NCBI GenBank assembly: GCA_965263235.1
Contig: OZ253667.1
Span: 1,026,189-1,090,188 of the forward strand
Direction: 5' to 3'
Origin: Pseudomonadales bacterium
GTDB lineage: Bacteria > Pseudomonadota > Gammaproteobacteria > Pseudomonadales > UBA7434
DNA length: 64,000 nucleotides
Position numbers and translations under genes: made by a program. The stretch's first letter is position 1. Every line of letters begins with the position of its first letter. This document shows, in pieces, positions 2,877-41,560 of the stretch. The notes below the pieces were generated by a model. It did not search any database and had not been told where the DNA came from. It saw only the letters and a program-made list of their open reading frames with translations.

Positions 2877-4073
2877 ATGCAAGAGTTTGATGACATCCGT
2901 CCTTATAACGACGATGAAATTAATAGAACAATTTTGTCGCTCTGCGACAACCGCGAGTTTGTTGCCCTGATTGCAGGGTATCGATTCCCTACGCTTTCGC
3001 GCCTGGCTGTTGGCTCCTTCAAATTAATTTTAAATTTGATGGTAAAGAGAGGGGTGCTGTCGCGCTTTGGAGGAATTCATTGCGTTAACGACATGCAAGC
3101 GTTGCTCGAGGAGTATCTAGAGATAATGCTGGTGAGAACCTCCGATGGTTTTTCGGTGGCGGGACTCGAAAAGTTGGCACTGGACAGATCCCATTTATTC
3201 TTAAGTAATCACCGGGACATTACGCTGGACCCGGCTTTTACCAATCTGGCGCTGCATCGTGCAGGGGGGAGGACAGTTCGTATAGCGATTGGCGATAACT
3301 TGCTAAGCAAGCCCTGGGCGTCGGATTTAATGCGGATCAACAAAAGCTTTATAGTTAGACGTTCGATTACCAAGCCTAGAGAGCTGCTTAAGGCGCTAAC
3401 TAAGTTGTCGCGTTATATAAAATTTTCTCTGGATGAAGAGCGGGAAAGTGTCTGGATCGCACATAGAGAGGGTCGTGCAAAAGATGGGATTGATAAAACC
3501 GACACGGCCGTATTAAAAATGATATTTTTAGGACGACCTAAAGGCGTGGATTTTTCTGATTATTTAAGAGAATTGCGAGTGGTGCCCTGTAGTATCGCCT
3601 ATGAGTTTGACCCATGTATTGCGATGAAGGCGCGTGAACTGCGTTTGCGACAATCTGAGCAGGGTTACGAAAAATCTGAACATGAAGATTTAGAGAGCAT
3701 TGGGCAGGGTATTGCGGGTTATAAAGGGCGTGTTCATTTGGAATTTTCTCCGCTGGTCACTGAGAGTCTCGACAATGTTGAACAGTTTGAAGAAGCACTG
3801 GATAAAGCCATCATATCGGGGTACAAATTGTTTCCAAGTAATTTCATTGCTTACAAAAGAGTGTTTGGCGAGGAAAAATATAATGCCGCCGTTGAAAAGT
3901 TAAGAGAGCATGATTTGATCGACGGTATGGTGTTGAGCGAGCTGGGTAGCATGCAAAGTTTGCAAAAATTTGAAGCGCACTTGTCGCAAGTAGAAGCGAG
4001 CGATTTGGAGATTGCATTACAGTGTTATGCGAACGCTGTAGTTTCAAAGCTTGGCTTGCTTCAACAAAACTAG
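2877..4073 (+). CDS. Acyltransferase family protein (PlsC/LPLAT-like)
   Basis: The [13 protein letters not shown] block resembles the acyltransferase NHxxxxD motif region. The ORF is 398 aa. The family assignment was made by eye only. Confidence 0.55.
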
Positions 4074-4096
4074 TCGACTGAATAGATAAGCTATCG

Positions 4097-6298
4097 ATGG
4101 CGCTTACCGAAGAGTTAAAAGGAAATATTCAGCGATATTATAGGGAGTGGTTAGAAAGCAATGACTGTAAACCTCGGCGACCGCAGAGGGAAATGATTGC
4201 TCATATCGCTCGATGTTTGGCCGCAGTAGAAACTGATGAAGAAGGTTTACGTCTGGACTCCTTTCAAAATCAGTTATGCATTGTTCAAGCCGGTACGGGT
4301 ACGGGTAAAACGCTTGCGTATTCGATTGCTTCGATTGTTATCGCGCAGGCGCTTGATAAAAAAGTCGTTCTCTCAACGGCAACAGTTGCCCTGCAAGAGC
4401 AGCTACTTAATAAAGATCTTCCAAACCTGCTTGAATCAACTTCGTTAGATTTTTCTCTGGCGATTGCGAAAGGGCGTTCGCGCTACTTGTGTTTGAGTAA
4501 GCTAAGCTTGCGTTTAAAAGAATCAGAGGGGCTTGCTCCGCCGCAAGGTTTATTCCCTGACGAGCAGGGTGTGTTAAGTCAAAGCGCCAAAAAATCCATC
4601 TCGATCCTTTCGAAAGCAGTTGGATCAGGTGAGGCTTGTGGAGAGTTTGATTCGCTACCGGATGATTTTGATCACGAAAACTGGCATCTGGTCGCTGCTG
4701 ATAGAAACAGTTGTAGTGGTAAGCAGTGCTCCAATTATCGGGATTGCTATCTTTTTAACGCGAGAGACGAAGTTCGTAAGTCGGACGTGATTGTGGCAAA
4801 TCACGATTTGGTGCTGGCGGACTTAACTTTGGGTGGGGGGAACGTTTTACCGCCGCCGGAGGAGACGATTTACGTGTTTGATGAAGGGCATCATTTACCC
4901 GAGAAATCACGTAACCATTTAAGTGTTTCGTTTGGTCTACAGGCGCAGAGAAAGCAACTAGGGAATAGTCAAAAAATTTTCGCACACTTGCGAGATGTTA
5001 CTGGTATTTCTGCTGATCTTTTGTCTCGAGAAAAAACGATCAATCAACTGGACGAAACCCTTAAAACGATCTTGGCAGCAGTAGACGGCGTGGTCGGTAA
5101 AATAGTTGATGGTGGCGGCGGGTTGGATGGGATCGATTCTGGTGCCGAAGGTGTGTACCGGTTTGTGAACGGAATAGTTGAAGAAGATTTGCGGCAGCAT
5201 TTTGCAGACCTTCAAACCTGCTTTTTGGAAAAACATCGCCAGTTGAGTGCGATTGGTTCAGGTTTGGCGGATGCGATAAAGGATACAGGTGACGGTGATA
5301 CTGTTGTGCACGAGCGCAGTATTGCGAAGGGAAAATCTAATTCGAAAAAAGGCATTACGACAAGGGAGCGCCTGGAAGCTGCGCTTTCGTTAGTGAGTCA
5401 TTCACTCGCTCAGGTAGACAATGCGCTTGCTGTTTGTGATAGCTATGCTAATTGCAGTAAAGATGACCCGTACGCACGCTGGCTTTTAGAGAGCGACACT
5501 TCGGCCACCGCGAGAGCGGATGTTAGTGTTTTTTCAGTGCCGCTTTCTACTGCGAGTATTTTAAAAAGAATTCTGTGGAAGCGCTGTTTTTCGGCGGTAG
5601 TTACTTCAGCGACGCTCGCGCCGGCCGGAAACTTCAAGCATTTTTTTAGCAAGTTGGGTCATGGAGATGAGGTCCGCTCAATTCAGTTGTTAGGTGAGTT
5701 TAATTACGCTGATGCTGTTTTTTACGTTCCGCAAATGCAAAGCTCTGCGACTAATGCAATACTGCATACTGAAGAGCTTATCGAGTTAATTCCGAATTTA
5801 GTAGACAGTACAGGCGGGAGTCTGGTTTTGTTTTCATCGCGAAAGCAAATGATGGATGTTGCGCAAGAATTAGAAGCTGCGTTAGATGTTTTGGTTCAGG
5901 GAGAGCGCTCAAAACAGAAGTTGCTTGATCTTCACCGAGAGCGTGTGGATAAAGGGGGGCGAAGTGTGCTCTTTGGCCTGGCTAGTTTTGCCGAGGGCTT
6001 AGATTTGCCTGGTGACTATTGCAAAGAAGTTGTTATTGCGAAGCTTCCATTTTCTGTGCCGGATGGCCCTGTCGATAAAGCAATGGCAGAGTGGGTCGAG
6101 TCCAGGGGCGGGAACCCGTTTTATGATATTAGTTTACCAGATGCAGCCATACGCTTGATGCAGTCAAGCGGGAGGCTTTTGCGCAAAGATTCTGATGAGG
6201 GTCGTATAACGCTATTAGATAGGCGGATAGTGGCAAAAAGCTATGGAAAGCAGCTGCTCGCGGCACTCCCTCCATACCGGCTCGAAGTGGGGCGTTAA
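4097..6298 (+). CDS. dinG: ATP-dependent DNA helicase, DinG family
   Basis: It has Walker A AGTGTGKT and a DEGHH (DEAH-type) box. Cys residues between the motifs are consistent with an Fe-S domain. The C-terminal helicase motifs include SFAEGLD. The ORF is 733 aa. Confidence 0.85.
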   Translation: MALTEELKGNIQRYYREWLESNDCKPRRPQREMIAHIARCLAAVETDEEGLRLDSFQNQLCIVQAGTGTGKTLAYSIASIVIAQALDKKVVLSTATVALQEQLLNKDLPNLLESTSLDFSLAIAKGRSRYLCLSKLSLRLKESEGLAPPQGLFPDEQGVLSQSAKKSISILSKAVGSGEACGEFDSLPDDFDHENWHLVAADRNSCSGKQCSNYRDCYLFNARDEVRKSDVIVANHDLVLADLTLGGGNVLPPPEETIYVFDEGHHLPEKSRNHLSVSFGLQAQRKQLGNSQKIFAHLRDVTGISADLLSREKTINQLDETLKTILAAVDGVVGKIVDGGGGLDGIDSGAEGVYRFVNGIVEEDLRQHFADLQTCFLEKHRQLSAIGSGLADAIKDTGDGDTVVHERSIAKGKSNSKKGITTRERLEAALSLVSHSLAQVDNALAVCDSYANCSKDDPYARWLLESDTSATARADVSVFSVPLSTASILKRILWKRCFSAVVTSATLAPAGNFKHFFSKLGHGDEVRSIQLLGEFNYADAVFYVPQMQSSATNAILHTEELIELIPNLVDSTGGSLVLFSSRKQMMDVAQELEAALDVLVQGERSKQKLLDLHRERVDKGGRSVLFGLASFAEGLDLPGDYCKEVVIAKLPFSVPDGPVDKAMAEWVESRGGNPFYDISLPDAAIRLMQSSGRLLRKDSDEGRITLLDRRIVAKSYGKQLLAALPPYRLEVGR

Positions 6299-7287
6299 CC
6301 GCCGAGGTAAAGACATTCTGTGAGTAAATTTTACAAGTAGATTTAGGCCTACCGCTTGAACTACAAAAGGAATTGTGTAATTATCGACCACATAATCTGC
6401 CACGTTGTTTGTGGTGAGCATATTCTTTTCCGCGACGAACATGTGTCGTTGCGTGTTACGTTAGGTGGTCCTGGTCGGCCTTAGCGTGAGGGAAAAGGTG
6501 CATTTGGTAGTCGTGGCGTTATATTCGTTGCCTCGGTTGTTGCTTGCTCGTTAACTGTTCAATATTTGCAGCAGTGCGGGCGGCAGTTTGTTTGTACCTG
6601 TTTCGTTCCTCCTCACGTTCTTCTTTCCCAGGCTTTCCTAATTGATACGTGTTTTTTGCGTGGGTATCTACGCAAATTGGCGTGCTGAATAGCAGCGCAT
6701 CTCCCCCTGTTGTGATGCTCTCAGCGCAACCAATATTTTTCATGAGGGCTTGCCTACGAATTTTGAATAGATATCTCGTAAGTTAGCGTCAATAGTTTTC
6801 GAGGGTTGTCCTGGTAGACCCGCTCGTCTTTATTGGCACTGCTTCGACCTACAGAACGTTTGCTTTACTCATCGCGCAGGCTTTGCATTCTTAGCTGCTA
6901 CCGTGTGGGGTAAGACGTTTAATAACGCCGGTCGCATTAGCGGTCGATTGGCTGTGGGTTGTTTTGTGGTGTCATCATCTACCAGTACTCCTCTTTAGAT
7001 AAATTAAAGGTGTAGCTCTAGCCTGGTCTATCGCTAGGGCTCTAATGCCGTCGGCTGTTTTACTGCACAGCATTCGTATGAGTGTTGGTGATCAGTTGAG
7101 GCTTTTTTTATTTTTTAGATCTCAGGAGGTCTTATCGCGCACCCCTACTAGTTTAAAAAATGCTTATGAAGCGTGCTTTGGTTCTGTGCACGTTGCGTCT
7201 TAATCAAATCTCCATAACTAAGGCTTTTGGCTATGTGGCTGTGTAACGCTGCGAGGCCTGCGTTTTGGTGATTTAGCTTGACTATAT

Positions 7288-7486
7288 ATGATAAAATTTT
7301 AACTGGTTTTTATATCTATCGTTGAATTTGTCGTTAAACGGTCACGCTGAAATTCTCGCTTTTTAAGCTGATAAAAGGCTCAGTAATGATTGTACCACCG
7401 AGCTAACCTGGAGCTATTTTTAATGTTTTTTGGGATTTTTTTCTCCAGGGTATTTCTTTTTTGTAAATAAAATGATAAAATTTTAA
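7288..7486. repeat. Two exact copies of the 15-mer ATGATAAAATTTTAA in an AT-rich ORF-free region
   Basis: The copies are at 7288-7302 and 7472-7486. The second lies ~25 nt upstream of the -35 element at 7511. Confidence 0.6.
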
Positions 7487-7510
7487 ATCTGGATTTTTTC
7501 AAAAAAAGTG

Positions 7511-7538
7511 TTGACACAGCCTGTAGACTGGTTAACAT
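7511..7538 (+). promoter_or_regulatory. Sigma70-like promoter candidate
   Basis: TTGACA (7511-7516), a 16-nt spacer, then TAACAT (7533-7538). No protein-coding ORF lies downstream. Confidence 0.4.
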
Positions 7539-7661
7539 TGTTCCCAAGTTTTAGTCGGTGTTGGCTCAATCACATTGTTAGGCGAGTTGATTGGCAACGC
7601 TTCCTAGTTTGAAGGCGTAGACGGCTTTTTGCTGGCGCGCTTGACGGTTTTAAACGCCAGT

Positions 7662-7810
7662 CGAGCCTTGCTGGGCTTCTCCAGGGGCCAAGGGGCAGCA
7701 GGGCTCGGCAGGCGATAAATTTTGATTTGATAGTAGTGGTTTTAACGTCAGCTGGACCCGTTGGGCTTCTCCAGGGGCCAAGGGGCAACGGGTTCCGGCA
7801 GACGATAAAA
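7662..7810 (+). ncRNA. Candidate structured RNA: two tandem hairpins with an identical 22-nt loop and covarying stems
   Basis: Hairpin 1 has stem cgagccttgctg / cagcagggctcg (7662-7707). Hairpin 2 has stem ggacccgttg / caacgggttcc (7754-7796). Both enclose GGCTTCTCCAGGGGCCAAGGGG and are followed by GGCAG(G/A)CGATAAA. The strand is uncertain. Confidence 0.35.
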
Positions 7811-7991
7811 AGGCAGGGATAAAGAATAATAAATGGAGTCTTGCTGGGTTTTAGCAGGCAGTTCAAATTTGTTGTTGCTGGTGCTGGTGTCACCACTGAA
7901 TTCATACCAGGCACTTTGATGCTCGAGGTTTTGTCATCAAGGTCAAGGGTATCGAGGTGGAGTTCGGTTTGAGTGGCGCCAGCAACAGTAT

Positions 7992-8018
7992 AAATAAGCT
8001 ATTAGCTTTTATTTTTTT
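7992..8018 (+). terminator. Weak intrinsic terminator candidate
   Basis: AAGCT-ATT-AGCTT is a short stem followed by TTTATTTTTTT. The stem is AT-rich and only 5 bp. Confidence 0.3.
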
Positions 8019-8460
8019 CGATTGCGTTTTTGCTTGGCTTGATTGGTGATGGCGTGCTCCGTTTTGAGTTTGTCACGACGTTTCCGCAACCAGCGGTTAA
8101 ATGACAGGATTAGGCGGTTTTGAGAGTAATGTAGTTATGTGGCAATGCGTTGCGGCGATGCGATTCCAGGGCTATTGTCTGGTCGCTATACGTTCAATTG
8201 TGCAAGAGTGATCGCACAAAAAAAGTACAAAAATGCTTGCTATATCCAAATGCGTTGTGTAGCATGTGATCCAGTCGCTAGACCTTACAGGATTTAGCGA
8301 TGACTTTTACAAGTTTAAAAAAGTAAAAACGCTGTAAAAAGCATTGTGAATCAAAGGTTTAGTAAAGCTTTAGGTTGACAAAAAGGTATTTTATTATAAC
8401 GGCTTGACTGACAGACTGTTGCTCAGCAAGAGGAGAACAATAAAGGCTGTACCTATTTAT

Positions 8461-8544
8461 CGATGTGAATCGACAATGCTTTCTTCGATGTGAATCGATG
8501 CTCAGGAAGAGGCTAATTATAATAATCGGTGTGAATCGACAATC
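8461..8544. repeat. Three direct copies of CG(A/G)TGTGAATCGA upstream of the first CTERM-protein gene
   Basis: cgatgtgaatcgacaat is at 8461, cgatgtgaatcgatgct at 8486 and cggtgtgaatcgacaat at 8527. Copies 1 and 3 share extended flanks. Confidence 0.6.
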
Positions 8545-8750
8545 AACAATTGGCTATTTAGCGGTACGGTCAAGTACAAAGCAATTCTTCACGGGGCAGA
8601 ATAAAATTGCTGCTGAGTGTGTTAGCTTGAGTTAAATAAAGACGTAACAATTAAGCGTCATACTTATTCCTCAGGTTAGTACTTGCAAGCGACTAGTTCG
8701 TTTGTCTTCTTAAAAAAGTAAAGTTTTTAAGCAAAATCGGAGTTTTAACG

Positions 8751-9467
8751 ATGAAAAAACAATTAAGCATTTTGGCGGGTTCAGTTCTGCTAGCTTCAGG
8801 TGCTCACGCAGCTACCGTTGGTGTTGGCGGAAATGCCGTAGCGGTTTTTGATACTGCTGGCGTAGGTACCTACATCATTGATACTGGTGTTACTGCCGAC
8901 GCTCTTGCAGCTGGTAATGGCTTCCAAATCGATGTGTCTGCAGCTTTAGCTGCACTTGGGTCAATTGATTCTTACGCAGTTCTAGGACTTACCACTCCTA
9001 CTGCAACAGGTTTATACAACTACGATTCAGGTTCTTACGTAGATGTTGGCGCTGGTGTTGTTTACGCTTCATCTACCGGTGGCGGTCCCGCAGTTAGTCA
9101 AAACAACACTGTTCTACAGACCGGTGGTGTAGCAACATACTTGAATAACGCTAATTTCGGCCTTAACGTAGATGGTTCTGGTGGAGATGCAAGTGGTTCT
9201 GCTGCAATACTCACTGGCTTTGGTGGCCTGTTGAACGCTGCCGGTGCATTATCCGGTCTGTTCGTACAGGATTCTGACTTTACGGGTTTAACTTCGTCGC
9301 CTGATGCGGTTACGATTCTGACTCCAACAGGCGCTATTGAAGGTGTTTATTTAGACGGTACAACTTTCAGTGCAACTGCTGTTGGTTCAACCGTGGTACC
9401 TGTGCCCGCTGCAGCCTGGCTATTTGGCTCGGCGCTTGTTGGTCTGGGCGTAGTTCGTCGCAGGTAG
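8751..9467 (+). CDS. Exported protein with a VPLPA/PEP-CTERM-like C-terminal sorting signal (paralog of 21108-21962)
   Basis: The signal peptide is MKKQLSILAGSVLLASGAHA/AT. The C-terminus VPVPAAAWLFGSALVGLGVVRRR has the motif, a hydrophobic helix and a basic tail. Confidence 0.8.
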   Translation: MKKQLSILAGSVLLASGAHAATVGVGGNAVAVFDTAGVGTYIIDTGVTADALAAGNGFQIDVSAALAALGSIDSYAVLGLTTPTATGLYNYDSGSYVDVGAGVVYASSTGGGPAVSQNNTVLQTGGVATYLNNANFGLNVDGSGGDASGSAAILTGFGGLLNAAGALSGLFVQDSDFTGLTSSPDAVTILTPTGAIEGVYLDGTTFSATAVGSTVVPVPAAAWLFGSALVGLGVVRRR

Positions 9468-13216: not shown

Positions 13217-14875
13217 ATGTCTCTGGTGAATAAAAAGCTCATAGCTACGGCTAGTCCAAAAAATGCTGAAAAGGCAAGAAAGCGGCTGGATGGTACAAGA
13301 ATTACAATCAGCCTTTTTGCGAAACCGGCGCAGGAAATGACCTGCGCAGAAGCAATTACCTATGCTAATTCACTTTTGGCAGAAGGTGATCCGCATTCAG
13401 CATTGTCGATAGCAGACCAGCTGCTGGAAATTCAGGATCAGATAATCGATATTTACCTATTAAAGGTAAGGGCTTTGCTGGATCTTGAAGCGCTGTATGA
13501 ACTGGACTCTCTTATTGAAGAGTTGCTAGATGTGGCTCCGGACAATATTGGAGTGTTAGTTAACGCATCGCGCTTCTATCTGTTGTTGGGGCGTGTCAAA
13601 GAAGCGTTTTCCGCACTAAAGAAAATCAATGAAATCAGTCCAAATCGAATAGAAACCTTTTCGCAGATGGCGTTGTGCTACAGGTACTCGGGAGCTGGTG
13701 ACAAAGCTATCAAGTTGCTTGAGCGAAGCATCGGCCAGGTTTGGAAGAGAAGGTTTAGTGACGAAGAGCGTAATGCTCAATATCGATCAGTTTTATTTCG
13801 TTATGCTGGATATAAGCACGTTGAAGGAGAGATGCGGCAGGATCTGGAGAACTTCGCGGGTTCTGGTGATGACAGGATTGCTGCTTCGGCTGCCTATGCG
13901 TTGGCTCAGCAAAGCCTGTTTGAGAAAAACATTCAAGATGAACAGCGATATCTTGTAATGGCTAATTTGTCTGAGAATAAATACACAACCCGTGGAGTTG
14001 AGCTCAAACACTATCTTAATGAGTATGAGCGTGTTCGAAAGCTGCATGCTTCTCTCTTTGCTTCTTCACAACCCGAATGGCTTGAGTCTGAGTTTGATAG
14101 TGATTTTAGCCCAATTTATATCTTGGGTTTGCCAAGGAGTGGAACGACTTTAATGGAGCAGATATTGGGAGCTAGCTCAAAAATAGGACAAACGGGAGAG
14201 TCAAAGGGGTTTTCACTCGCTGTCGAAAAAGCTTTTCTAACGCATCAGCCAGCTTTTGTAGGTAGCCCACATCCGGAAGACATCAACCGTCTGCCTATGT
14301 CTGCTTTTCATGAGATCGCACGTTACTATGAGCGACACCAAAGTGTCATGACGAAGAAGTATATGTATATTGATAAGGAGCTGTATAACTTCAACTATGT
14401 TGGGTTGATGGCGGTGCTTTTTCCAAAGGCAAAGTTTATTCACATGAATCGAGCTCCAATGGATATATTCCTGAGTTGCTTTAAAAATAGCATCCCTGGT
14501 GTGCATGCGACTTCTGACCTGGTGCATATGGCTGAATACTATGTTCACATGAAAAAGCTCATAGGGCACTGGAAGACTGTTTTTGAAGATCGTATATTTA
14601 TAATGAACTACCGTGACTTGGTAGAAAGACCCGAAGATAGTACTCAGCAAGTGGTTGATTATTTAGGTATTGGTCTTGAGAACGATATGCTTAAGTTTCA
14701 TGAGCGAAAAAACGTTGTTCGAACGCTTAGTGTGGATCAAGTGCGCCAAAAAATATATACATCTTCTATCGAAAAGTGGCGTAAGTATGAGGTTATGTTG
14801 GCGCCCGCGAGAGCTAGGCTAGAGGAGTTGGGTGTTCCCATAGAAGGGGTTTCGTACATTAACAAAGACAGTTAA
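13217..14875 (+). CDS. TPR-repeat protein fused to a TPST-like (Sulfotransfer_3-type) sulfotransferase
   Basis: The N-terminal ~280 aa has TPR-like helical repeats. The PAPS 5'-phosphosulfate loop is YILGLPRSGTTLMEQILG. The C-terminal block is RTLSVDQVRQKIYTSSIEKWRKY. Confidence 0.85.
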   Translation: MSLVNKKLIATASPKNAEKARKRLDGTRITISLFAKPAQEMTCAEAITYANSLLAEGDPHSALSIADQLLEIQDQIIDIYLLKVRALLDLEALYELDSLIEELLDVAPDNIGVLVNASRFYLLLGRVKEAFSALKKINEISPNRIETFSQMALCYRYSGAGDKAIKLLERSIGQVWKRRFSDEERNAQYRSVLFRYAGYKHVEGEMRQDLENFAGSGDDRIAASAAYALAQQSLFEKNIQDEQRYLVMANLSENKYTTRGVELKHYLNEYERVRKLHASLFASSQPEWLESEFDSDFSPIYILGLPRSGTTLMEQILGASSKIGQTGESKGFSLAVEKAFLTHQPAFVGSPHPEDINRLPMSAFHEIARYYERHQSVMTKKYMYIDKELYNFNYVGLMAVLFPKAKFIHMNRAPMDIFLSCFKNSIPGVHATSDLVHMAEYYVHMKKLIGHWKTVFEDRIFIMNYRDLVERPEDSTQQVVDYLGIGLENDMLKFHERKNVVRTLSVDQVRQKIYTSSIEKWRKYEVMLAPARARLEELGVPIEGVSYINKDS

Positions 14876-14900
14876 GCGGCAAGTTGATTCGGTTTTTTAT

Positions 14901-16400
14901 ATGAGTAGTTCTGGTAACAAGTATGAGCGGGTCGAAGAAGCTATAAATACAGGTAAATATCGACTTGCGCTTAGGATGCTTGTTGCTGTTACAGAAGATG
15001 CGCCCCCAAAAAAGCTCGATCAAACAGGATTGTTATATCGCATTACGATCTATAATCGGCTGCAGTGGCTGCCAGAGGGAATGGAGTTGTTGGAGCACTG
15101 TATCGCGAAAGCAGGCAGTAGCTGTGAATTAAATCTTGAGATAGCGTTATTCTTCATGCTTTTAGGGCGATCATGTGATGCCGAACGCTTCTTTCGATTA
15201 GCTTTAGATGCTGATCCCACTAGCGCACTTATTATTACTGAGTTAGCAATACTTTATGAGCAGCGTGGCGATTCGGATCAGGCATTAAAAATATATAATA
15301 GAGTTTTTTCACGTGGAATTAGGCGTGGACGCGCGGATGCAGTGTTTGCAAGGGCTCTGGCTCGCTTGACTGGGTTGCGTGAGCTAACGGGTGATGAAGA
15401 GAAAGCAGTTCTAAAGTTTATAAAATCGGGGAAAGGAACGTCGCTCGAAACACACTTGTACTTTTCGATGGCAAAACACTATGGCCGTAAGAATAACTTA
15501 GACAAGCAGCTGCAATTTTTGAAGATCGCAAATGACCTTGCTTATGCTGAAGACCGCGCGGGGCCGGGAGAGTATTCGGCTAGCCTGGCCAAGGAGCAGC
15601 TTTTGGCTCTAAAGCGAATGTTCAAGCAGCCGAGACCAGATTGGATGCCTGTAATTAACGCTGGCCAGAATCAGTATCTCTTTGTGCTCGGTATGCCGCG
15701 TAGTGGTACAACATTGATTGAGCAGATACTTGGAGCGCATTCAAGGGTCGGCAATACGGGAGAATCCCGAGCGTTACAGATAGCCTTGTCGAGGTTCTCG
15801 CCAGCTAAGCATGAAGGGAGGGTGGTAAACAGCAAGCTTTTCGAGCATTTCAGGCTGATGAGTGGCAGAGACTTTAATGAGGCCGTAAAATATTACCAAC
15901 AGTATCAACGCTTGCTCTCTGCATCAGAGATTGTCACCGACAAGGAATTGAATTGCGTTAACAGGGTGGGGCTTTTGGCTAATATGTTTCCTAGAGCAAA
16001 GTTTATCGTTATAAAGAGACATCCCCTTGATGTAGCGGCCAGCCTTTTACAGCACTATTTTAAAAATGCGACCTACTCTACTAGGGGGCTTAATTGTGTG
16101 CTTGAGCATGAACACTATTATGCGAAGGTGGATTTTTGGAAGGAGCTCTATTCGGAGAAATTTATAGAGGTCAATTATGAGTCGCTTGTTTCTAAGCCTG
16201 AGGAAAGTATAAGAGCGATGTTGGAAAAAATTGATTTGGATTGGGAGCCGGGGTTGTTAAGGTTTAATGAGAGGACAAACTCGGTGAGGACACCTAGCCT
16301 GAGCCAAGTCCGCTTAGGGTTGAACACAGCGGCAGTAAACAAGTGGAAAAATTTTTCCGAAATGCTTGGCCCGGCTATTGAATATTTAGGTATCAAATAA
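14901..16400 (+). CDS. TPR-repeat protein fused to a TPST-like sulfotransferase (paralog of 13217-14875)
   Basis: It has FVLGMPRSGTTLIEQILG and RTPSLSQVRLGLNTAAVNKWKNF. The architecture matches the upstream gene. Confidence 0.85.
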   Translation: MSSSGNKYERVEEAINTGKYRLALRMLVAVTEDAPPKKLDQTGLLYRITIYNRLQWLPEGMELLEHCIAKAGSSCELNLEIALFFMLLGRSCDAERFFRLALDADPTSALIITELAILYEQRGDSDQALKIYNRVFSRGIRRGRADAVFARALARLTGLRELTGDEEKAVLKFIKSGKGTSLETHLYFSMAKHYGRKNNLDKQLQFLKIANDLAYAEDRAGPGEYSASLAKEQLLALKRMFKQPRPDWMPVINAGQNQYLFVLGMPRSGTTLIEQILGAHSRVGNTGESRALQIALSRFSPAKHEGRVVNSKLFEHFRLMSGRDFNEAVKYYQQYQRLLSASEIVTDKELNCVNRVGLLANMFPRAKFIVIKRHPLDVAASLLQHYFKNATYSTRGLNCVLEHEHYYAKVDFWKELYSEKFIEVNYESLVSKPEESIRAMLEKIDLDWEPGLLRFNERTNSVRTPSLSQVRLGLNTAAVNKWKNFSEMLGPAIEYLGIK

Positions 16401-16402
16401 TT

Positions 16403-17959
16403 ATGTGGTTCCCAGCAAGAATTAAGGAAGTAGATAGTGTTGACATCAATCCAGCACTAGATTTTCTAGCGACCTTGTCTGCAGAAGACTGGGCTGGTGG
16501 AGAGGCACTTAAACAAAAATTGGCGGGTAGCAGACCAACTCAGTCGATATTTCTTTATTCGCTTACCAGGGAGGAGCTTTTTGACACTTTATCGAAGCGG
16601 CCGTTGAGGCAAGAGGATGTGCCCAGGCTTGCGGGTTTTAATAATTATTACCCGAGCTTAGCTTATTTGTTTGATAAGGTGAGGGAACATTATTCAAAGG
16701 ATGGGGTTTTCGTCAGAGCGCAGTTGGCTAAGATGGGGCCTGGCGCCAAGATTGATCCACACCGTGATTCTTTTTTTATACTAGAGAACAGCCACCGCAT
16801 TCATATTCCTCTAGTTACAACAGAGAAGCTTCAGTTTGTCGTCGACGATGAGCTAGTAAGGATGGATGCAGGGAAAATGTATGAGCTCAATAATCAGGTT
16901 ATGCATTGGGTTAATAATCCAAAGGACTCAATCGATAGAATACACTTGATTATTGATTACTTGCCTCCTGAGTATAATGTTCCGCAATCGCTTGCAGCGG
17001 ACTTTAAATTCTACATAAAGAAGCACAGAGCGGGTCGCCCTGTGCGACTACCGATAAAAGATGTTAGTTACCCAGAGTTGTTGGTGTCTGTATCTTGTGG
17101 AGCAATTAACAGATTATATTTATTTGACCTTGATAAAGAGAGTCTGCGGCCGGCTCAGTTGCAGCCGGGTAAAAATAGTACTGAAGTGTTAGATGTTGGG
17201 AAAATACTTTCTCTTAAATGCGTGGACAAAGAATTCGCTGCGCTGCAAAAAGATCAGCTAGTGGTTTTTGATAAGGATCTTAAAATCAAGGGTGTGTATA
17301 AAAACTCTCATTTAAAAGGCGCTTGCTCAATGTTTGTAGACGGGAGGTTTTCTTATGTGGCCTGTTCAGGCTGTGATGGGGTTTTAAGGTTTAATTTTCG
17401 CAAGAAGGTTTTCGATAAAGGGTGGCGACTAACCGTTAATGAAGAGAATGGAGCAGTGTGTATTACGGAGTTTTGCCCAAGCGATACGGATACAAAAAAT
17501 CTGTGTAACCAGTATGGTGTTAACGCGGGGTGGATGGATCGGGACAAATTGGTGGTTGGTTGTGCTAAGTTCGATAAACTTATCCACTATCAGGATGGAA
17601 AGGCTAGAGCGGTGGAACAGCTGCATCTAGGAGCAGAAAATGCACAGCCTTATAACAAAGGTATTCTGTATAGCAGTGCAGATCACCAGCACGTGGTCTA
17701 TTCAGCGAACTATGATTACAGGCAGGTTGATCTGGAGTCCGTGCCAGGGTTAATGATCGCGGCAGAACGTGTAGGTTTGTCTCTTGCCGGGAAGCAAGGT
17801 AGCTGTTTGCTGAGGCATCTAAAAGGCACAACATTGTTTGCAGTTGGTTCGAAAATCTTAGTGCTCGATATGAAAAACCAAGCTGTTGTTAGAGTTTTTG
17901 ATGTTCCTTTGGAGCGCTCATCGAGTATTTCAAGTATGATGGTTTGGTCTGCTCGCTAG
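16403..17959 (+). CDS. Aspartyl/asparaginyl beta-hydroxylase-like domain fused to a ~300-aa unknown C-terminal domain
   Basis: PGAKIDPHRDSF..SHRIHIPLVT..AGKMYELNNQVMHWVNNP..RIHLIIDY fits the HxD...H 2OG-oxygenase pattern of the Asp_Arg_Hydrox family. The start codon is 2 nt after the upstream stop. Confidence 0.8.
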   Translation: MWFPARIKEVDSVDINPALDFLATLSAEDWAGGEALKQKLAGSRPTQSIFLYSLTREELFDTLSKRPLRQEDVPRLAGFNNYYPSLAYLFDKVREHYSKDGVFVRAQLAKMGPGAKIDPHRDSFFILENSHRIHIPLVTTEKLQFVVDDELVRMDAGKMYELNNQVMHWVNNPKDSIDRIHLIIDYLPPEYNVPQSLAADFKFYIKKHRAGRPVRLPIKDVSYPELLVSVSCGAINRLYLFDLDKESLRPAQLQPGKNSTEVLDVGKILSLKCVDKEFAALQKDQLVVFDKDLKIKGVYKNSHLKGACSMFVDGRFSYVACSGCDGVLRFNFRKKVFDKGWRLTVNEENGAVCITEFCPSDTDTKNLCNQYGVNAGWMDRDKLVVGCAKFDKLIHYQDGKARAVEQLHLGAENAQPYNKGILYSSADHQHVVYSANYDYRQVDLESVPGLMIAAERVGLSLAGKQGSCLLRHLKGTTLFAVGSKILVLDMKNQAVVRVFDVPLERSSSISSMMVWSAR

Positions 17960-18025: not shown

Positions 18026-18583
18026 ATGAAAGTATTCGGTATAGGTTTCCATAAAACAGGCACAACAAGTTTGGCTCAGGCGCTGCGATCGCTGGGGTAT
18101 TCTGTTACCGGCCCTAACGGTGTTAACGATCCAAATATAGCAAACAATGCATTAGCCATAGCTAACAAGTTGGTTTGGGAATACGACGCCTTTCAAGATA
18201 ATCCCTGGCCGATTCTTTATAAAGAAATGTACCAGCAGTTTCCTGATGCCTATTTTATCGCGACATTTAGAGATCCAGAAAAGTGGATTAATAGTCTTTT
18301 GAGGCACTTCGGCTCTAATAGTACACCTATGCGAAGCTGGATCTATGGTGTGGGTTGCCCAAAGGGAAACGAAGGTATCTATTTGGAGAGATACAAGCGT
18401 CATTATTTAGAGCTTGATAAGTTCTTTAAGGAAAAACAGAAAAGTATATTAAAGATGAACCTTGAGAAAGGGCATGGTTGGGAGAGGCTCTGTACTTATC
18501 TCGGTGTTGAGATACCAGATAAACCCTTTCCACATGCTAATAAGGCGAGTGCAAGAGAGCGTCGTCAACCACATCAGCGCTGA
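18026..18583 (+). CDS. Small sulfotransferase family protein
   Basis: MKVFGIGFHKTGTTSLAQAL is an N-terminal P-loop-like PAPS motif. The ORF is 185 aa. Confidence 0.7.
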   Translation: MKVFGIGFHKTGTTSLAQALRSLGYSVTGPNGVNDPNIANNALAIANKLVWEYDAFQDNPWPILYKEMYQQFPDAYFIATFRDPEKWINSLLRHFGSNSTPMRSWIYGVGCPKGNEGIYLERYKRHYLELDKFFKEKQKSILKMNLEKGHGWERLCTYLGVEIPDKPFPHANKASARERRQPHQR

Positions 18584-18611
18584 TTTGCTTTAGAGTCCCT
18601 GATTGAACAAA

Positions 18612-19415
18612 ATGGCCAAAAAAAAAATTGATCTCATTATCACAGGTATGCCCCGTAGCGGAACTAGTTTCTTATGTTCTAGAGTTAATGAGATGGAGAA
18701 TGCCGTTGTAGTTAATGAGCCGCAAGAGGTGTTTGGTGAGCTGAGAAGAGAAGGAATTGATGGTGTTTCTCGCTTGTTTGCAAGTTATAGGGAACGAATT
18801 ACCACAGGTGTGGCAGTTCCAAATAAAATCAAAGACGGAAAATTTATAGAGGATACGTCGTACGAAGATAGTCGTTCAATGCATGTTCATAAGGTTGATG
18901 ATCACGAGTTTCTATTGGGCATAAAAAATACGCTAGTGTTTATGTCGATTTTAAATCAACTGGTACGTAATAAAGCTGTCGACTATATTATGGCTAGTGT
19001 CAGGCATCCTTTGGATTGTATTGCTTCGTGGCATAAGGTGTCATTCCCGCATTTGAATTCGGCCAAGCCAGAGTTTCTTTCTGATTTTGCAGTGGGTAAG
19101 TTTTCAACCAGGCTTAATAGATTGTTGTCTGAGGATGATCTTTATGTTCGATCAGCAATGCTATGGCAACTTTTAGCTCAAACGTTGCTGGCCGAAAAAA
19201 GTAAAATCCATTTGGTTCGCTATGAGGATATAGTTAGAAGGCCTAATGATGCTTGCAAACATATTAGTAGATATCTTGGTCTGAATGAGCGGGCTCAAGA
19301 CCGCTCTGCTTCTAAGCCTATTCGTAGGCGATCATTATTACCGGGGGATAAGCAAGAGTTGATATATGCCATTTGTAAGAAAGAAGCAGTTCAGCTTGGT
19401 TACAAAAACGGTTAG
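18612..19415 (+). CDS. Sulfotransferase family protein
   Basis: It has the motif IITGMPRSGTSFLCS. The ATG at 18612 is preferred over the TTG at 18603. Confidence 0.7.
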   Translation: MAKKKIDLIITGMPRSGTSFLCSRVNEMENAVVVNEPQEVFGELRREGIDGVSRLFASYRERITTGVAVPNKIKDGKFIEDTSYEDSRSMHVHKVDDHEFLLGIKNTLVFMSILNQLVRNKAVDYIMASVRHPLDCIASWHKVSFPHLNSAKPEFLSDFAVGKFSTRLNRLLSEDDLYVRSAMLWQLLAQTLLAEKSKIHLVRYEDIVRRPNDACKHISRYLGLNERAQDRSASKPIRRRSLLPGDKQELIYAICKKEAVQLGYKNG

Positions 19416-37747: not shown

Positions 37748-38050
37748 GGGATGTAGCGTTCTCTTTGTACCCTTCACACAGACAGGCAGTAGCGCACTAA
37801 GTAGTGCGCCTAGAAAAGAAAGAGATATTAAGATTATTAGTTAGATAGTTTAGAGTGGGATGTAGCGCTCACTTTGTAGAGAGCGGTAGCGCACTAAGTG
37901 GTGCGCCTAGAAAAGAAAGAGATATTAAGATTATTAGTTAGATAGTTTAGAGTGGGATGTAGCGCTCACTTTGTAGAGAGCGGTAGCGCACTAAGTGGTG
38001 CGCCTAGAAAAGAAAGAGATATTAAGATTATTAGTTAGATAGTTTAGAAC
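37748..38050 (+). repeat. Three tandem units (109, 97, 97 bp), each starting with a degenerate copy of the tRNA-Pro 5' part
   Basis: The units start GGGATGTAGCG at 37748, 37857 and 37954. Units 2 and 3 are identical. Each contains GGTAGCGCAC and an AT-rich spacer. The true tRNA follows at 38050. Confidence 0.9.
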
Positions 38051-38126
38051 GGGATGTAGCGCAGTCTGGTAGCGCACCACACTGGGGGTGTGGTGGTCGT
38101 CGGTTCAAATCCGGCCATCCCGACCA
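38050..38126 (+). tRNA. tRNA-Pro (anticodon GGG)
   Basis: CGGGATGTAGCGCAGTCTGGTAGCGCACCACACTGGGGGTGTGGTGGTCGTCGGTTCAAATCCGGCCATCCCGACCA. All four stems pair, and the anticodon loop is CTGGGGG. Confidence 0.85.
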
Positions 38127-38154
38127 ATTTATACTTATAAATCAAAATGTTAAA

Positions 38155-38180
38155 AGCCTCGCAAATGCGGGCTTTTTATT
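38155..38180 (+). terminator. Terminator after tRNA-Pro
   Basis: AGCCTCGCaaatGCGGGCTTTTTATTT (one bulged base). Confidence 0.6.
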
Positions 38181-38217
38181 TAGCGGTGATTTAAGTCCAT
38201 ATTAAGTCCAAATTGCG

Positions 38218-39219
38218 CTAAGTGTGACTAAGTTGATCAATGGGGCTGGTCACACCTTTGCCGCCCCGGTTGACTACATGAGTGTAGATTTCGGTGGTGC
38301 TGATGTCGCTGTGTCCTAACAACTCTTGAATGGTGCGCAAATCATAGCCCGACTCCAATAGGTGAGTCGCAAAGCTATGCCTGAAACTGTGAATGCGTGG
38401 TAGCTTGTGAATCTTGGCTTCTTGCACTGCGCGTCTTACCTGGCGGCTCAGTGTGGTCGGGTGCATATGGTGGCGGCGCTTCACGCCACTGCGAGGGTCT
38501 TTGCCGATACTGCTTGAGGGAAATAGAAACTGCCAGGCCGTCTCGTACGGCGCTCGAGGGCTTTTGCGTGCGAGTGCATCAGGCAGGCAAACTTCGCCAT
38601 ACCCGTCGCGAATATCTTGGTCGTGGAGCAGCTTAACGCGCGCTACTTGCGCTTTCAATTCGGGGATTAATTTTTGCGGCAGCATGGTCGCGCGGTCCTT
38701 ATTTCCTTTGCCATTGCGGACGATAATATTATTGGAGCCAAAATCGACATCCTTGATGCGCAGTGAGAGAAGCTCTGCGAGCCTCAAGCCAGTGCCGTAA
38801 AGTAATTCGACCTGTAGCCGGTAGACGCCATTAAGGCCGTTGATAATAGCCGCTATCTCATCCCGACTATATATCACGGGAAGCCGCTTGGGCGCTCTCG
38901 CGCCTTGATAGCCAAGTTCACCCACCTCAATTCCTAAAAAGCGCTTGTACACGTATACGAGCGCATTGAGTGCGGTGCGTTGTGTATTGACCGAGCAAAA
39001 GCGTTGATTGGATAGATAACTTAAAAAATTTTCGATTTCAGTGGGGCCTAATGATTTGGGGTGTTGCTTACCGTGAAAGTTAATAAAGCGGCGGATCCAG
39101 TGAATATAGGTTTGCTCGGTGCGGTACGCGAGCCCCTTTTGCCGCATGTGCAGGCGTAGCTGATCGAGAAAGCGTGGCGATTGCGGTGGAATGGTGGTGC
39201 GGATTTTTATTTGTTCCAT
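38218..39219 (-). CDS. intI: Integron integrase
   Basis: It is a tyrosine recombinase with the R..HxxR..Y boxes (TGLRLAELLSLR, HSFRHSFATHLL, TEIYTHV). It also has the IntI-specific insertion LPDALARKSPRAPYETAWQFLFPSS. The start was set at MEQIKIR. Confidence 0.9.
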   Translation of the reverse strand: MEQIKIRTTIPPQSPRFLDQLRLHMRQKGLAYRTEQTYIHWIRRFINFHGKQHPKSLGPTEIENFLSYLSNQRFCSVNTQRTALNALVYVYKRFLGIEVGELGYQGARAPKRLPVIYSRDEIAAIINGLNGVYRLQVELLYGTGLRLAELLSLRIKDVDFGSNNIIVRNGKGNKDRATMLPQKLIPELKAQVARVKLLHDQDIRDGYGEVCLPDALARKSPRAPYETAWQFLFPSSSIGKDPRSGVKRRHHMHPTTLSRQVRRAVQEAKIHKLPRIHSFRHSFATHLLESGYDLRTIQELLGHSDISTTEIYTHVVNRGGKGVTSPIDQLSHT

Positions 39220-39479
39220 GGGATGCACTCGTATACCTGTATGTATATACAGTATCAATTTTAAGTGCACTCTGTCAAACTTCAGGTGATCAATGGATAG
39301 GTGTTCACTATTTCCAGGGTTGCAGGGCTAAGGTATTGAAAAATAAGATGGTGGTATCGTGTACAACAGCCATTGATTTTCCCCGCCTGGCAGATTCCTG
39401 CTCGCTTTAACCTTTTTTGATATCAATCATTCATTGCTTAACCTACTGAACAATAGACTCTTTTTTTGATGTCTAAGTA

Positions 39480-39545
39480 TGTTTAAATTTGGATACACAG
39501 CATGGTGGATATGAGCCACTTGCTATTGAATAAACTGTTAGCCAT
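39480..39545 (+). other. attI region with the recombination point in GTTAGCC (G39537/T39538)
   Basis: GTTAGCCAT (39537-39545) is the exact reverse complement of ATGGCTAAC (40036-44), which ends the first cassette. The left extent of attI is not determined. Confidence 0.6.
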
Positions 39546-39560
39546 ATTAAGGATACAATA

Positions 39561-40043
39561 ATGAATGAAGTTAGAATCCCTTATAAACCAAACAAAATTC
39601 TATTTATATTAGCAATCGGGTTTTTTGGTGCCTGTGCCGGATTTATGGGAAATATTGCAATAACAAACGATAGAGGTTTGGTGCTTAACCGAATTTTTGA
39701 ATTCTCCACACAAGGAGCTTCTATTTTTTACTGGGTTATTACAGTAATAGCTCTAGCATTTGTTTTAGTTGGAATTATTGCCCTTATAAAAAGCTTTACC
39801 TCAAAAAGAGAGATAATTATCTCCGATACTTCTATCACGTCCCCTAAAAGTGGTTTTAGCAAACTAGATATTACCGTCAATTTTTCAGACGTTACGGATG
39901 TCACGATACAAACTGTACAAAAAACCAAAATACTTAACATCGACCACTTAGATGGTAGACTCTCAATTCCAAATAGCATGTTGCCAAATAAACAAGCTTT
40001 TGAAGAGTTAGTTTCACATATTCAAGTTAAATTAAATGGCTAA
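39561..40043 (+). CDS. Cassette 1: small membrane protein (two TM helices + soluble C-terminal domain)
   Basis: The hydrophobic segments are ILFILAIGFFGACAGFMGNIAI and IFYWVITVIALAFVLVGIIALI. The ORF is 160 aa. Confidence 0.65.
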   Translation: MNEVRIPYKPNKILFILAIGFFGACAGFMGNIAITNDRGLVLNRIFEFSTQGASIFYWVITVIALAFVLVGIIALIKSFTSKREIIISDTSITSPKSGFSKLDITVNFSDVTDVTIQTVQKTKILNIDHLDGRLSIPNSMLPNKQAFEELVSHIQVKLNG

Positions 40044-40057
40044 CAAGTGACTATGGT
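40036..40057 (+). other. 5' (R''/L'') part of the attC of cassette 1, interrupted by an IS
   Basis: ATGGCTAACAAG has the same R''-AAG organisation as the other attC sites (GCATAACAAG, CCTAGCAAG, GCTAGCAAG). Confidence 0.55.
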
Positions 40058-40072
40058 GTCAAACTCTAATTA

Positions 40073-40459
<387 letters not shown>

Positions 40460-40481
40460 TTAACGAAGAGGAGATCTCAAC

Positions 40482-40748
40482 ATGAAGAAGAAACGATTTA
40501 CCGAAGAACAGATTATTGGTGCGCTGAAGGCACACGAAGCTGGCGAGAAGGTCGCTGATATTTGTCGACGAATCGGCGTGGCGCAGGGTACGTTCTACAA
40601 TTGGCGAGCCAAATTTGGTGGGATGGAAGTGAACGAAGCTAGGCGGCTGCGTGAATTGGAATCAGAGAACACCAAGCTCAAAAAGCTGTTAGCCGATAAG
40701 CTCCTTGAAGTTGAAGCGATGAAGGATGTGTTGTCAAAAAAGTGGTGA
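40482..40748 (+). CDS. IS3-family transposase OrfA (HTH)
   Basis: MKKKRFTEEQIIGALKAHEAG..GTFYNWRAKFGG, with a leucine-zipper-like tail. It ends just after A AAA AAG (40736-40742). Confidence 0.9.
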   Translation: MKKKRFTEEQIIGALKAHEAGEKVADICRRIGVAQGTFYNWRAKFGGMEVNEARRLRELESENTKLKKLLADKLLEVEAMKDVLSKKW

Positions 40749-41560
40749 AACCTGCGAGCAAGAAGTTGGCGATCTCGCATATGAAGACAACACATCGTGT
40801 GAGTGAACGAACAGCTTGTCAGCTCGTAGGTTTGAGCCGAAGCGGTTATCGCTATCAAGCACAACCCAAAGGTGATGAATCACTGACGAAAAGGCTCAGT
40901 GAGCTGGCCACGCAATATCCTCGCTACGGCTACCTGATGTTGTACAGTCTACTCAAACAGGAAGGGTTAGTCGTTAACAAGAAACGCACCTATCGCTTGT
41001 ATACAGCAATGGGCTTGCAGGTTCGCACGAAGAAACGTAAGAAGCTCACAAGACCACGACAACCGCTAGCAGTCCCGATTGGCAAAGATATTCGTTGGTC
41101 GATGGACTTTGTCTCCGATCAATTGAGTAATGGCAGACGCTTTCGAGTGCTCAATGTGGTCGATGACCATACACGCGAGCTGGTCGGCCAGCTCACAGCG
41201 TTTTCGATATCCGGCCAGCAAGTCGCGGGCTTCTTAAATCAACTGTTAGCAACCCGTAACAAGCCCGATCAAGTGATCTGCGATAACGGCACGGAGTTTA
41301 CGAGTAAGGCGATGTTCTTTTGGCAGAAGGATGCAGGCATAAAGCTTGGCTTTATTCAGCCAGGCAAACCGACACAGAATGCGTTTGTAGAAAGTTTAAA
41401 TGGCAAGTTCCGAAACGAATGTTTAAACCAGCATTGGTTCCGCAGCATTGATGAAGCGAGACACATCATTAACGACTGGCGAGAGCACTACAATCATAAA
41501 AGGCCGCATAGCGCATTGAACTATATGACGCCAGTGGCCTTTGCGAATCGAGCAGCATAG
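40742..41560 (+). CDS. IS3-family transposase OrfB (DDE), expressed by a -1 frameshift from OrfA
   Basis: It lies in the -1 frame relative to orfA. The rve-type core is WSMDFV..VVDDHTRE..DNGTEFTS..ESLNGKFRNECL. Confidence 0.9.
   Translation: MVKPASKKLAISHMKTTHRVSERTACQLVGLSRSGYRYQAQPKGDESLTKRLSELATQYPRYGYLMLYSLLKQEGLVVNKKRTYRLYTAMGLQVRTKKRKKLTRPRQPLAVPIGKDIRWSMDFVSDQLSNGRRFRVLNVVDDHTRELVGQLTAFSISGQQVAGFLNQLLATRNKPDQVICDNGTEFTSKAMFFWQKDAGIKLGFIQPGKPTQNAFVESLNGKFRNECLNQHWFRSIDEARHIINDWREHYNHKRPHSALNYMTPVAFANRAA

Follow-up and report, generated by a model that had tools for sequence, protein, structure and literature searches.

Among environmental bacteria PEP-CTERM proteins and exosortases occur widely, with links to the formation of exopolymers, flocs and biofilms, and to our knowledge the regulation of PEP-CTERM genes has been understood only at the level of the sigma-54/PrsKR DNA site. 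The present work concerns a stretch of 64,000 nucleotides (nt) from a Pseudomonadales bacterium of the UBA7434 lineage (GenBank assembly GCA_965263235.1, contig OZ253667.1, positions 1,026,189 to 1,090,188 of the forward strand), hereafter called the window and numbered from its first letter, in which an array of long hairpins, modules A and B, lies between dinG and a PEP-CTERM gene. An earlier note, made from the letters alone, had pointed to two of these hairpins as a candidate structured noncoding RNA, and comparison with related loci (designated by L numbers) now shows, through sequence covariation, that modules A and B are a conserved structured RNA family of the + strand with two kinds of long hairpin. 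This hairpin-array family is undescribed, although the kind of object, a regulatory RNA of reiterated hairpins, is already known.

The control element described by Haft et al. 2006 (PMC1569441) is a cis-regulatory DNA site under PrsK/PrsR control that combines a 17-nt motif 1 with a sigma-54 -24/-12 element, laid out as motif 1, a spacer of about 63 nt and -24(GG)/-12(GC) about 71 nt before the ATG, and the same study reports many PEP-CTERM genes with large unexplained upstream regions. The present array shares with that site its place in noncoding DNA of unusual length ahead of a lone PEP-CTERM gene in a proteobacterium, but it consists of RNA hairpins of 73-122 nt, is associated with a sigma-70-type promoter and lies at least 426 nt from the ATG. 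A sigma-54 promoter upstream of 8751 was rejected by a scan of the -24/-12 boxes alone: TGGCAC-N5-TTGCW at up to 2 mismatches is absent from 7397-8751, and its matches across the window equal chance expectation.

The array resembles the CsrB, RsmY, RsmZ and CrcZ RNAs in being noncoding, in having a strong predicted promoter of its own and in reiterating a hairpin with an invariant exposed motif, and it further shares with the CsrB type a repeat number that varies between relatives and a link to surface and exopolymer functions. It differs in that its motifs are UCCA/AAGGGG and AUACCAGG and not A(N)GGA in loops (a test for CsrA-sponge motifs found 4 GGA in the 446-nt RNA, none of them in a conserved loop or bulge), in that its hairpins are 73-122 nt and not short, in that no Csr or Rsm family of Rfam matches it, and in that its position is fixed beside one gene family. 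The CcsR or 'cuckoo' RNAs of Rhodobacter are reportedly tandem homologous stem-loop RNAs as well, and are said to be like the present array in their variable copy number, partial co-transcription with a small protein gene and C/U-rich hairpin tip. Sequence, size and taxon are however different, the tip loop here is of 4 nt where the cuckoo RNAs have a long CCUCCUCCC loop, module B is additional, and a limited target test was negative here. REP/BIME, ERIC and Correia elements are likewise imperfect intergenic palindromes that flank genes and possibly serve as mRNA stabilisers or RNase III substrates, but the present hairpins occur at one locus per genome, in one orientation, in a conserved context and with strand-specific G·U pairing. 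Finally, HK022 put, Bacillus EAR and the ops/JUMPstart elements resemble the array as structured or conserved leader elements that head a long variable surface-polymer cluster; the differences are that no sequence or model similarity was found, that module number varies, that a promoter-like block lies downstream, and that there is no NusG paralogue among the scanned window proteins (neither NusG/RfaH-like nor other RNA-binding genes among the 37 window open reading frames (ORFs) scanned, up to 47.6 kb).

Structure and covariation

The hairpins of the window, with scores from the covariance models R1 (module A, built from 23 copies) and R2 (module B), are:

7649-7721 (+): module A copy 1, a 26-bp irregular hairpin (R1 87.8 bits, E 5e-23)
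7740-7811 (+): module A copy 2 (R1 75.6 bits, E 2e-19)
7869-7990 (+): module B, a 122-nt hairpin in single copy in the window (R2 103 bits, E 8e-25)
7441-7450 (+): partial apex copy TTCTCCAGGG, 10 nt

The 22-mer GGCTTCTCCAGGGGCCAAGGGG occurs in the window at exactly two sites, 7674-7695 and 7764-7785 (+), a third is absent at up to 3 mismatches, and 0 of 100 shuffles matched. The identity between the two copies spans 26 nt (TGGGCTTCTCCAGGGGCCAAGGGGCA) and is thus longer than first described, while the reported spacing of 90 nt holds. The earlier note had taken the identical sequence for a 22-nt loop; the identity stands but the loop does not, since in the predicted fold the sequence forms an apex with a 6-bp helix (GGCUUC/GGGGCC), a UCCA tetraloop and a 6-nt 3' bulge, AAGGGG. 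Each module A is about 73 nt long with 26 pairs, and the two copies share this architecture and the 26-nt apex but have lower stems of different sequence, the arms of which, as had been noticed, differ between the copies and yet are complementary, both in the sequence and in the fold. The GGCAG(G/A)CGATAAA that was described as trailing the hairpins is indeed present but is no separate element, being the 3' half of the lower stem: GGCAG(G/A)CGATAAA / GGCAGGCGATAAA is the 3' strand and pairs with the upstream TTTAAACGCCAG / TTTTAACGTCAGC. Folded singly, copy 1 reaches -41.1 kcal/mol (z -5.2) and copy 2 -34.2 kcal/mol (z -4.0). The partial copy at 7441-7450 is where the earlier note placed it; it is not conserved in other loci and gives no R1 match, and it is possibly the relic of a decayed module, or chance.

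The hairpin at 7869-7990 is a third structured module that the first description had missed. It was exposed by the 295-nt tandem unit of locus L022, which has a homologue of module B in the spacer between its A copies, and the consensus hairpin was derived from 12 aligned copies. Module B has a 15-bp basal stem, UUGCUGGUGCUGG / CCAGCAACAG, a variable tip and an internal loop in which a conserved 5'-side (C/U)AUACCAGG faces GGAG.

The comparative set comprises 53 distinct A copies from about 30 marine metagenome and metagenome-assembled genome (MAG) loci, and R1 finds 62 strong + strand matches (E < 1e-13), with scores on the reverse strand lower by 60-70 bits. Over the 53 distinct copies 98.3% of cells are paired, compared with 27-44% in controls with slid partners, and changes on both sides are seen at 16 of the 26 pairs; no measure was reached by any of 500 shuffles. 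The seed alignment alone has 13 of 26 compensatory pairs (Alifold). Module B, with 23 strong R2 matches and 17 distinct copies, has 98.0% of cells paired and compensatory changes at 12 of 23 pairs, so that the covariation for which the earlier note had suggested a test is found among relatives in both modules. Furthermore, G·U outnumbers A·C by 224 to 2 across the module A copies, which means that the pairing works only as + strand RNA and contradicts the suggestion, also made in the earlier note, that the hairpins might be ones of DNA. In agreement with this strand, the fold of 7540-8020 has a z of -6.8 against shuffles on the + strand and of -2.3 on the - strand.

Most of the 53 distinct copies have exactly the same 26-nt apex, even though the DinG proteins of the source genomes are only 45-48% identical to that of the window. 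In the diverged copies of L001 and L015 the apical helix is kept by compensation (G-C to A-U and C-G to U-A), and UCCA and A(A/U)GG(G)G are retained.

A protein-coding role is not apparent. The sole ORF across the repeats (7570-7914, minus strand) is a translation of the repeats, as the earlier note had it; over the modules of the compared loci ORFs occur on the opposite strand only, with differing frame and extent, and no conserved coding sequence was found. Between the end of dinG (6298) and the next gene (8751) there is no credible ORF, and the idea of a small-ORF remnant was dropped, as neither tblastn of the 100-aa and 107-aa (amino acid) PEP-CTERM proteins described below against 6298-8750, which gave nothing significant, nor three-frame translation of 7800-8750 revealed a relic gene. 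We infer that 7545 to about 7990-8020 (+) is an untranslated, modular structured RNA made as a discrete transcript, and the proposal of a structured noncoding RNA of about 470 nt is supported by covariation, by the G·U strand bias, by a conserved promoter and by the conserved block 7545-7990.

Several known families were considered and set aside. Rfam 15 returned only spurious eukaryotic matches (snoRNA, lncRNA, miRNA) at 15-21 bits against gathering thresholds of 50-95, and an Rfam scan of the window and 14 related loci gave tRNAs only; this absence of a family match, on a check that the earlier note had proposed, is consistent with a new RNA. Resemblances to the binding loop of PyrR (UCCAGAGAGG) and to domain IV of the SRP RNA (ACCAGG...GCCAAGG) were weighed and dropped for want of a model match. 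A phage or plasmid origin was rejected, as neither viral contigs nor, by blastn, plasmid and phage collections gave a match. A single-aptamer riboswitch or cis leader does not fit 2-7 modules at 426-1707 nt from the ATG, a poorly conserved spacer and a promoter-like block in between, and for integron attC sites no distinct copy (n=53) has both an R'' (RYYYAAC) and an R' (GTTRRRY) core, the flanks being orthologous. In the searched literature the 16-mer was not found, nor was there a relevant link of PEP-CTERM or exosortase to an RNA motif, riboswitch or noncoding RNA.

Distribution and copy number

Exact matches to the 22-mer in metagenome contigs came from 14 marine loci with 1-3 copies each, and a degenerate scan of one genome per GTDB species found 12 true loci, all in uncultured Cellvibrionales/Pseudomonadales MAGs, one of which is titled only Pseudomonadota. 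Two more matches of the degenerate scan are without stems and are due to chance, about 4 being expected for 19 specified bases. In these scans the family is thus found only in uncultured marine Cellvibrionales/Pseudomonadales.

The earlier note had allowed that the 22-mer might belong to a high-copy REP-like element scattered without conserved context. Such a dispersed repeat it is not, for what is found is two A and one B in the window, even with filters off (two A in 64 kb), one locus per 3.4-Mb chromosome and a constant gene context; in the complete chromosome OZ244196.1 (3.4 Mb) the apex-pattern scan gives two matches 330 nt apart and none elsewhere. All 62 strong A matches are moreover co-oriented with the neighbouring genes.

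Within the single locus the number of modules ranges from 2 to 7, with at least 2 in every sufficiently long locus. The order A-A-B is found in the window, L017, L029 and L034-L036, A-B-A in L001, L010, L015, L021/25 and L027, A-A-A-B in L026, and A-gene-A-A-A-A-A-B in L020, which thus has six A. In L022 (2937-4503, -) five near-identical 295-nt A+B units are accompanied by a sixth A; this array is a recent tandem amplification, and 5 of its 6 A copies have a 1-nt deletion in the apical helix (GGC-UC).

The predicted transcription unit

7511-7538 (+): promoter P1, TTGACA-16-TAACAT, sigma-70-type, 10 of 12 consensus positions
7462-7510 (+): block upstream of P1, 73-88% identity with 10 other loci
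7545-7648 (+): leader, 97-98% identical within the species, no conservation between genera
7997-8018 (+): weak hairpin AAGCU-AUU-AGCUU plus U-run, an uncertain, possible 3' end
8237-8265 (+): promoter-like block P2, TTGCTA-17-TAGCAT, context outside the RNA

The promoter that the earlier note read at 7511-7538 is there with 10 of 12 consensus positions and is conserved among relatives. An equivalent TTGACA-16/17-TAnnAT, upstream and co-oriented, is present in L022, L026, L027, L014, L008, L019, L025 and L029; a consensus scan independently picks it in L022, L026 and L027, and it is readable also in L029. In the alignment across loci TTGACA is invariant, the spacer is of 16-17 nt, TAnnAT follows and an A/T tract precedes, and in the window this tract, TTTTTTCAAAAAAAG, abuts the -35 hexamer in the manner of an UP element. 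From P1 the transcription start is predicted at about 7545.

Besides the modules, the block 7462-7556 is the only intergenic part that matches many other loci, and its portion upstream of P1 is presumably functional. It includes TGATAAAAT at 7473-7481, which resembles an extended -10 element, and the scan flags an equivalent TTGCTA-17/18-TAAAAT with TG in L022 and L027, so that a second promoter may lie here. The 15-mer ATGATAAAATTTTAA occurs twice, at 7288-7302 and 7472-7486, 184 nt apart, and its second copy contains TGATAAAAT.

The block P2, situated downstream of the array and ahead of the PEP-CTERM gene, is below the threshold of the scan and has 8 of 12 consensus matches by hand count, and an equivalent TTGCGC-17-TAATAT/TAGTAT is kept about 190 nt before the ATG in at least 10 loci; it is best described as a promoter-like block for the downstream gene.

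The weak T-rich hairpin mentioned in the earlier note at about 8000 is seen at 7997-8018, as a short A/U-rich stem with a T-run. Module B is trailed by a U-run in the window, in L029 (where the short hairpin is another one and the run is U9) and in L034/L036 (where the small stem is lost), and a canonical terminator lies 340 nt beyond the array in L022 and L002. A conserved intrinsic terminator after the array was looked for and rejected, such an element being present in some loci only. As regards an independent small RNA (sRNA), the promoter is accordingly conserved and the U-tract after B is found in some loci only.

The constraint on the region can be judged from two contigs of one sample (L034, L036), 96.6% identical to window 3715-8814. 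The identities within this species are:

dinG: 97.5-98.4%
7441-7544, promoter region: 86-94%, with P1 hexamers intact and spacer and upstream bases variable
7545-7990: 98% (9 differences in 446 nt relative to L036)
7991-8230 (240 nt): 81%, the least conserved part of the region
8231-8750: 99%

The block of 98% identity indicates that constraint runs from the predicted transcription start to the 3' edge of module B.

Gene context

8751-9467 (+): PEP-CTERM gene for a 238-aa secreted protein with C-terminal anchor VPVPAAAWLFGSALVGLGVVRRR, PEP-CTERM / VPLPA-CTERM type
L014 6642-7395, L020 5935-7035, and in L008, L009 and L003: extra 100-aa PEP-CTERM gene with A modules

In every sufficiently long locus the gene order is constant: a tRNA, ychJ (-), an acyltransferase, dinG, an ORF-free stretch with the modules and a gene for a PEP-CTERM protein of about 235 aa, which ends VPVPAAAWLFGSALAGL..RRRK, the modules being upstream of and co-oriented with this last gene. 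The product of 8751-9467 matches TIGR03370 (E 1.6e-5, 24.8 bits, just under the cutoff of 25.35) and also the NF041538 tail, and its homologues follow A/B modules in all these loci at a distance from last module to ATG of 426-1707 nt. In L003, L008, L009, L014 and L020 A modules furthermore bracket the extra 100-aa PEP-CTERM gene, about 100 nt before its ATG and 22-23 nt after its stop, in L006 a module lies 22 nt past the stop of a 231-aa gene, and in L005, L013, L019, L022 and L024 a distinct PEP-CTERM gene of 106-107 aa is found upstream of P1.

Homology to L034/L036 ends at 8814, 63 nt into the PEP-CTERM gene (past 5064 in L034/L036), and returns only at the C-terminal anchor (9390-9458, 84%), which marks the body of the protein and the island downstream as strain-variable. 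Behind the PEP-CTERM gene this island extends over 12 kb (8814 to about 21000), is mostly co-oriented and encodes secreted proteins, TPR-sulfotransferase fusions and a glycosyltransferase-like protein. By these sequence comparisons the PEP-CTERM body and the TPR-sulfotransferase/glycosyltransferase island are strain-variable in the manner of O-antigen or capsule loci, and the RNA occupies the conserved edge of this variable island.

Some further features of the surroundings may be mentioned. The stretch of about 1.1 kb past dinG (6299-7440) has no credible ORF, is 95.5-96.7% identical within the species and has no similarity to other genera in the compared loci; in L014, L020 and L029 dinG is likewise followed by 1.4-3.6 kb devoid of ORFs. 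On the other side of the array, 8231-8750 is 67-76% identical to L017, L029 and L035 and contains three direct repeats of TCGRTGTGAATCGA, at 8460, 8485 and 8527, that are common to L017; it may be an array of transcription-factor sites or a structured 5' untranslated region. Within the island, 13217-17959 encodes three consecutive proteins of 500-550 aa, the first two with TPR repeats and with homologues in L029, L032 and L034-L036 that have precomputed sulfotransferase matches, the third with an Asp/Asn beta-hydroxylase domain, and two small sulfotransferases follow at 18026-19415; together these genes look like a sulfation and modification module for island products.

Traces of mobile elements are seen elsewhere in the window. 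A large serine recombinase ORF of 582 aa (101-1849, +), with Resolvase, Recombinase and Zn-ribbon domains, ends inside an opposite-strand tRNA-Met gene (1753-1829, -), and in related loci the same tRNA adjoins ychJ without the recombinase; this is probably an integrative element inserted at tRNA-Met. In the region 38050-42263, probably another tRNA-associated genomic island, a tRNA-Pro precedes genes for a tyrosine integrase (38218-39270, -) and for two transposases, one of the rve family (40742-41560) and one of the IS110 family (41571-42263, -).

Possible functions of the array

We infer that the RNA regulates the PEP-CTERM genes, or the adjacent island as the earlier note had suggested. In our analysis there is about an even chance that the array would do so as a reiterated docking platform for a trans-acting factor, controlling PEP-CTERM genes. 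The constant elements of A (the UCCA tetraloop, the G·U-containing apical helix and the AAGGGG bulge) and of B (the AUACCAGG internal loop opposite GGAG) would then be the docking sites, the docked factor would most probably be an RNA-binding protein, and the number of modules (2-7, changed by tandem duplication) would set the amount of factor held or recruited. The RNA would so control, post-transcriptionally, the PEP-CTERM surface-protein gene or genes beside the array, and where, in some lineages, modules lie within PEP-CTERM mRNAs, about 100 nt ahead of the start codon and 22 nt past the stop codon, the factor may act in cis too. The helices of both modules vary freely with pairing kept and the irregular elements are constant; indeed the 26 (A) and 8 (B) invariant nucleotides, kept despite a DinG identity of 45-48% and drifting helices, argue for recognition by a macromolecule. 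A docking platform is furthermore favoured by the combination of reiteration and rapid change of copy number, a hallmark of CsrB, RsmZ and CrcZ, and a separate transcription unit is supported by the conservation of P1, by the position of P2 between array and gene, and by the 98% identity of 7545-7990 relative to 81% for 7991-8230.

Several observations weigh against a trans-acting platform. Most loci were gathered by an exact-match apex pattern, and the invariance of the apex is therefore partly a selection effect, although this is countered by the diverged but compensated copies and by the loci obtained via a neighbouring protein and not the apex (L029, L032, L034-L036), which bear the same apex. 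The U-tract after B is missing in L035, L017, L020 and L032 and is not conserved across lineages, and since it is found only in the closest relatives of the window, with the stem lost within the species, the RNA may in some lineages be a long run-on leader. There is no gene for an RNA-binding protein in the conserved neighbourhood (ychJ, acyltransferase, dinG, PEP-CTERM, TPR-sulfotransferase). Finally, the spacing of 22 nt between stop codon and module in L006, L014 and L020 is too short to hold a separate promoter, so that a purely cis role would suit these modules equally well.

Such a cis role is the alternative that survives best, and we regard it as possible if rather doubtful. The modules would here be self-sufficient elements of a single long transcript, started at P1 and continuing into the PEP-CTERM gene and on into the island, with no titrated factor, and they might act as nuclease-resistant caps, as RNase III-type processing sites like those of T7 early mRNA or the REP stabilisers, or by processive antitermination as in HK022 put and EAR, which would allow readthrough of the long leader and the 12-kb co-oriented surface-polymer cluster. 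The fixed distances (about 100 nt and 22-23 nt) at which A brackets small PEP-CTERM genes in some lineages speak for it, as do the constant place of the modules upstream of and co-oriented with the gene of about 235 aa, the lack of a conserved terminator after the array and the position of the array on the conserved 5' edge of an island that is strain-variable and mostly co-oriented; in the O-antigen clusters of enterobacteria, ops/JUMPstart elements occupy such positions. RNase III might, moreover, plausibly cut the long helices, which have 26 and more than 23 pairs. However, a plain stability hairpin needs no invariant apex of 26 nt across genomes with a DinG identity of about 46%, the distance from last module to ATG varies from 426 to 1707 nt, the location of P2 downstream of the modules implies P2 transcripts without modules, the 240 nt after B are the least conserved within the species, and a copy number of 2-7 is atypical for put or EAR, in which variable copy number is not typical.

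A cluster of base-pairing sRNAs, with the C/U-rich apex (CUUCUCCA) as an anti-Shine-Dalgarno seed of the cuckoo type or the UCCC-loop type of Staphylococcus, is improbable. The CUCC that lies in and next to the tetraloop could pair with GGAG, the Shine-Dalgarno sequence of the PEP-CTERM genes, and a tandem array of variable number, partly 3' of small protein genes, is reminiscent of cuckoo clusters. But no more than 4 nt are exposed in the loop, the closing helix of which is itself kept by compensation, and a seed of 5 nt leaves 26 invariant nucleotides and module B unaccounted for. In addition, RNAduplex of the apex with 47 initiation regions gave -12.3 and -18.5 kcal/mol for the PEP-CTERM genes relative to a mean of -17.8 kcal/mol, and targeting of the neighbouring PEP-CTERM genes, which ranked below average, showed no enrichment in this test, a weak one confined to one window.

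That the inverted repeats act as DNA or as selfish elements (REP/ERIC/MITE-like, attC-like, or a cruciform or palindrome at the island border) is scarcely credible, since their closeness to the junction of conserved and strain-variable DNA, their tandem reiteration and their occurrence, like attC sites, just after small ORFs are outweighed by the one-strand pairing (G·U 224, A·C 2), by the single locus per 3.4-Mb chromosome and two copies in 64 kb with filters off, by an orientation that is always that of promoter and genes, by the absence of attC cores and of an integrase in the conserved neighbourhood, with flanking genes that are orthologous and not cassettes, and by a homology break at 8814, about 800 nt past the modules.

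Implications

Returning to the docking platform, modules A and B might, as a tentative and wider proposal, be the RNA half of a new lineage-specific ribonucleoprotein system for exosortase-sorted PEP-CTERM proteins in abundant, bloom-associated marine Gammaproteobacteria, working by Csr-like titration with a new RNA motif and a new RNA-binding protein as partner. Irrespective of this, one PEP-CTERM upstream region is now defined as a conserved two-module structured RNA with very strong covariation and an invariant element of 26 nt, which provides a new and well-supported family candidate for Rfam and an apex that can be used as bait for the partner factor. It also offers a way into the question of how a strain-variable surface island is controlled in abundant, uncultured Cellvibrionales/Pseudomonadales, and this control is likely to bear on attachment to particles and on escape from phages or grazers.

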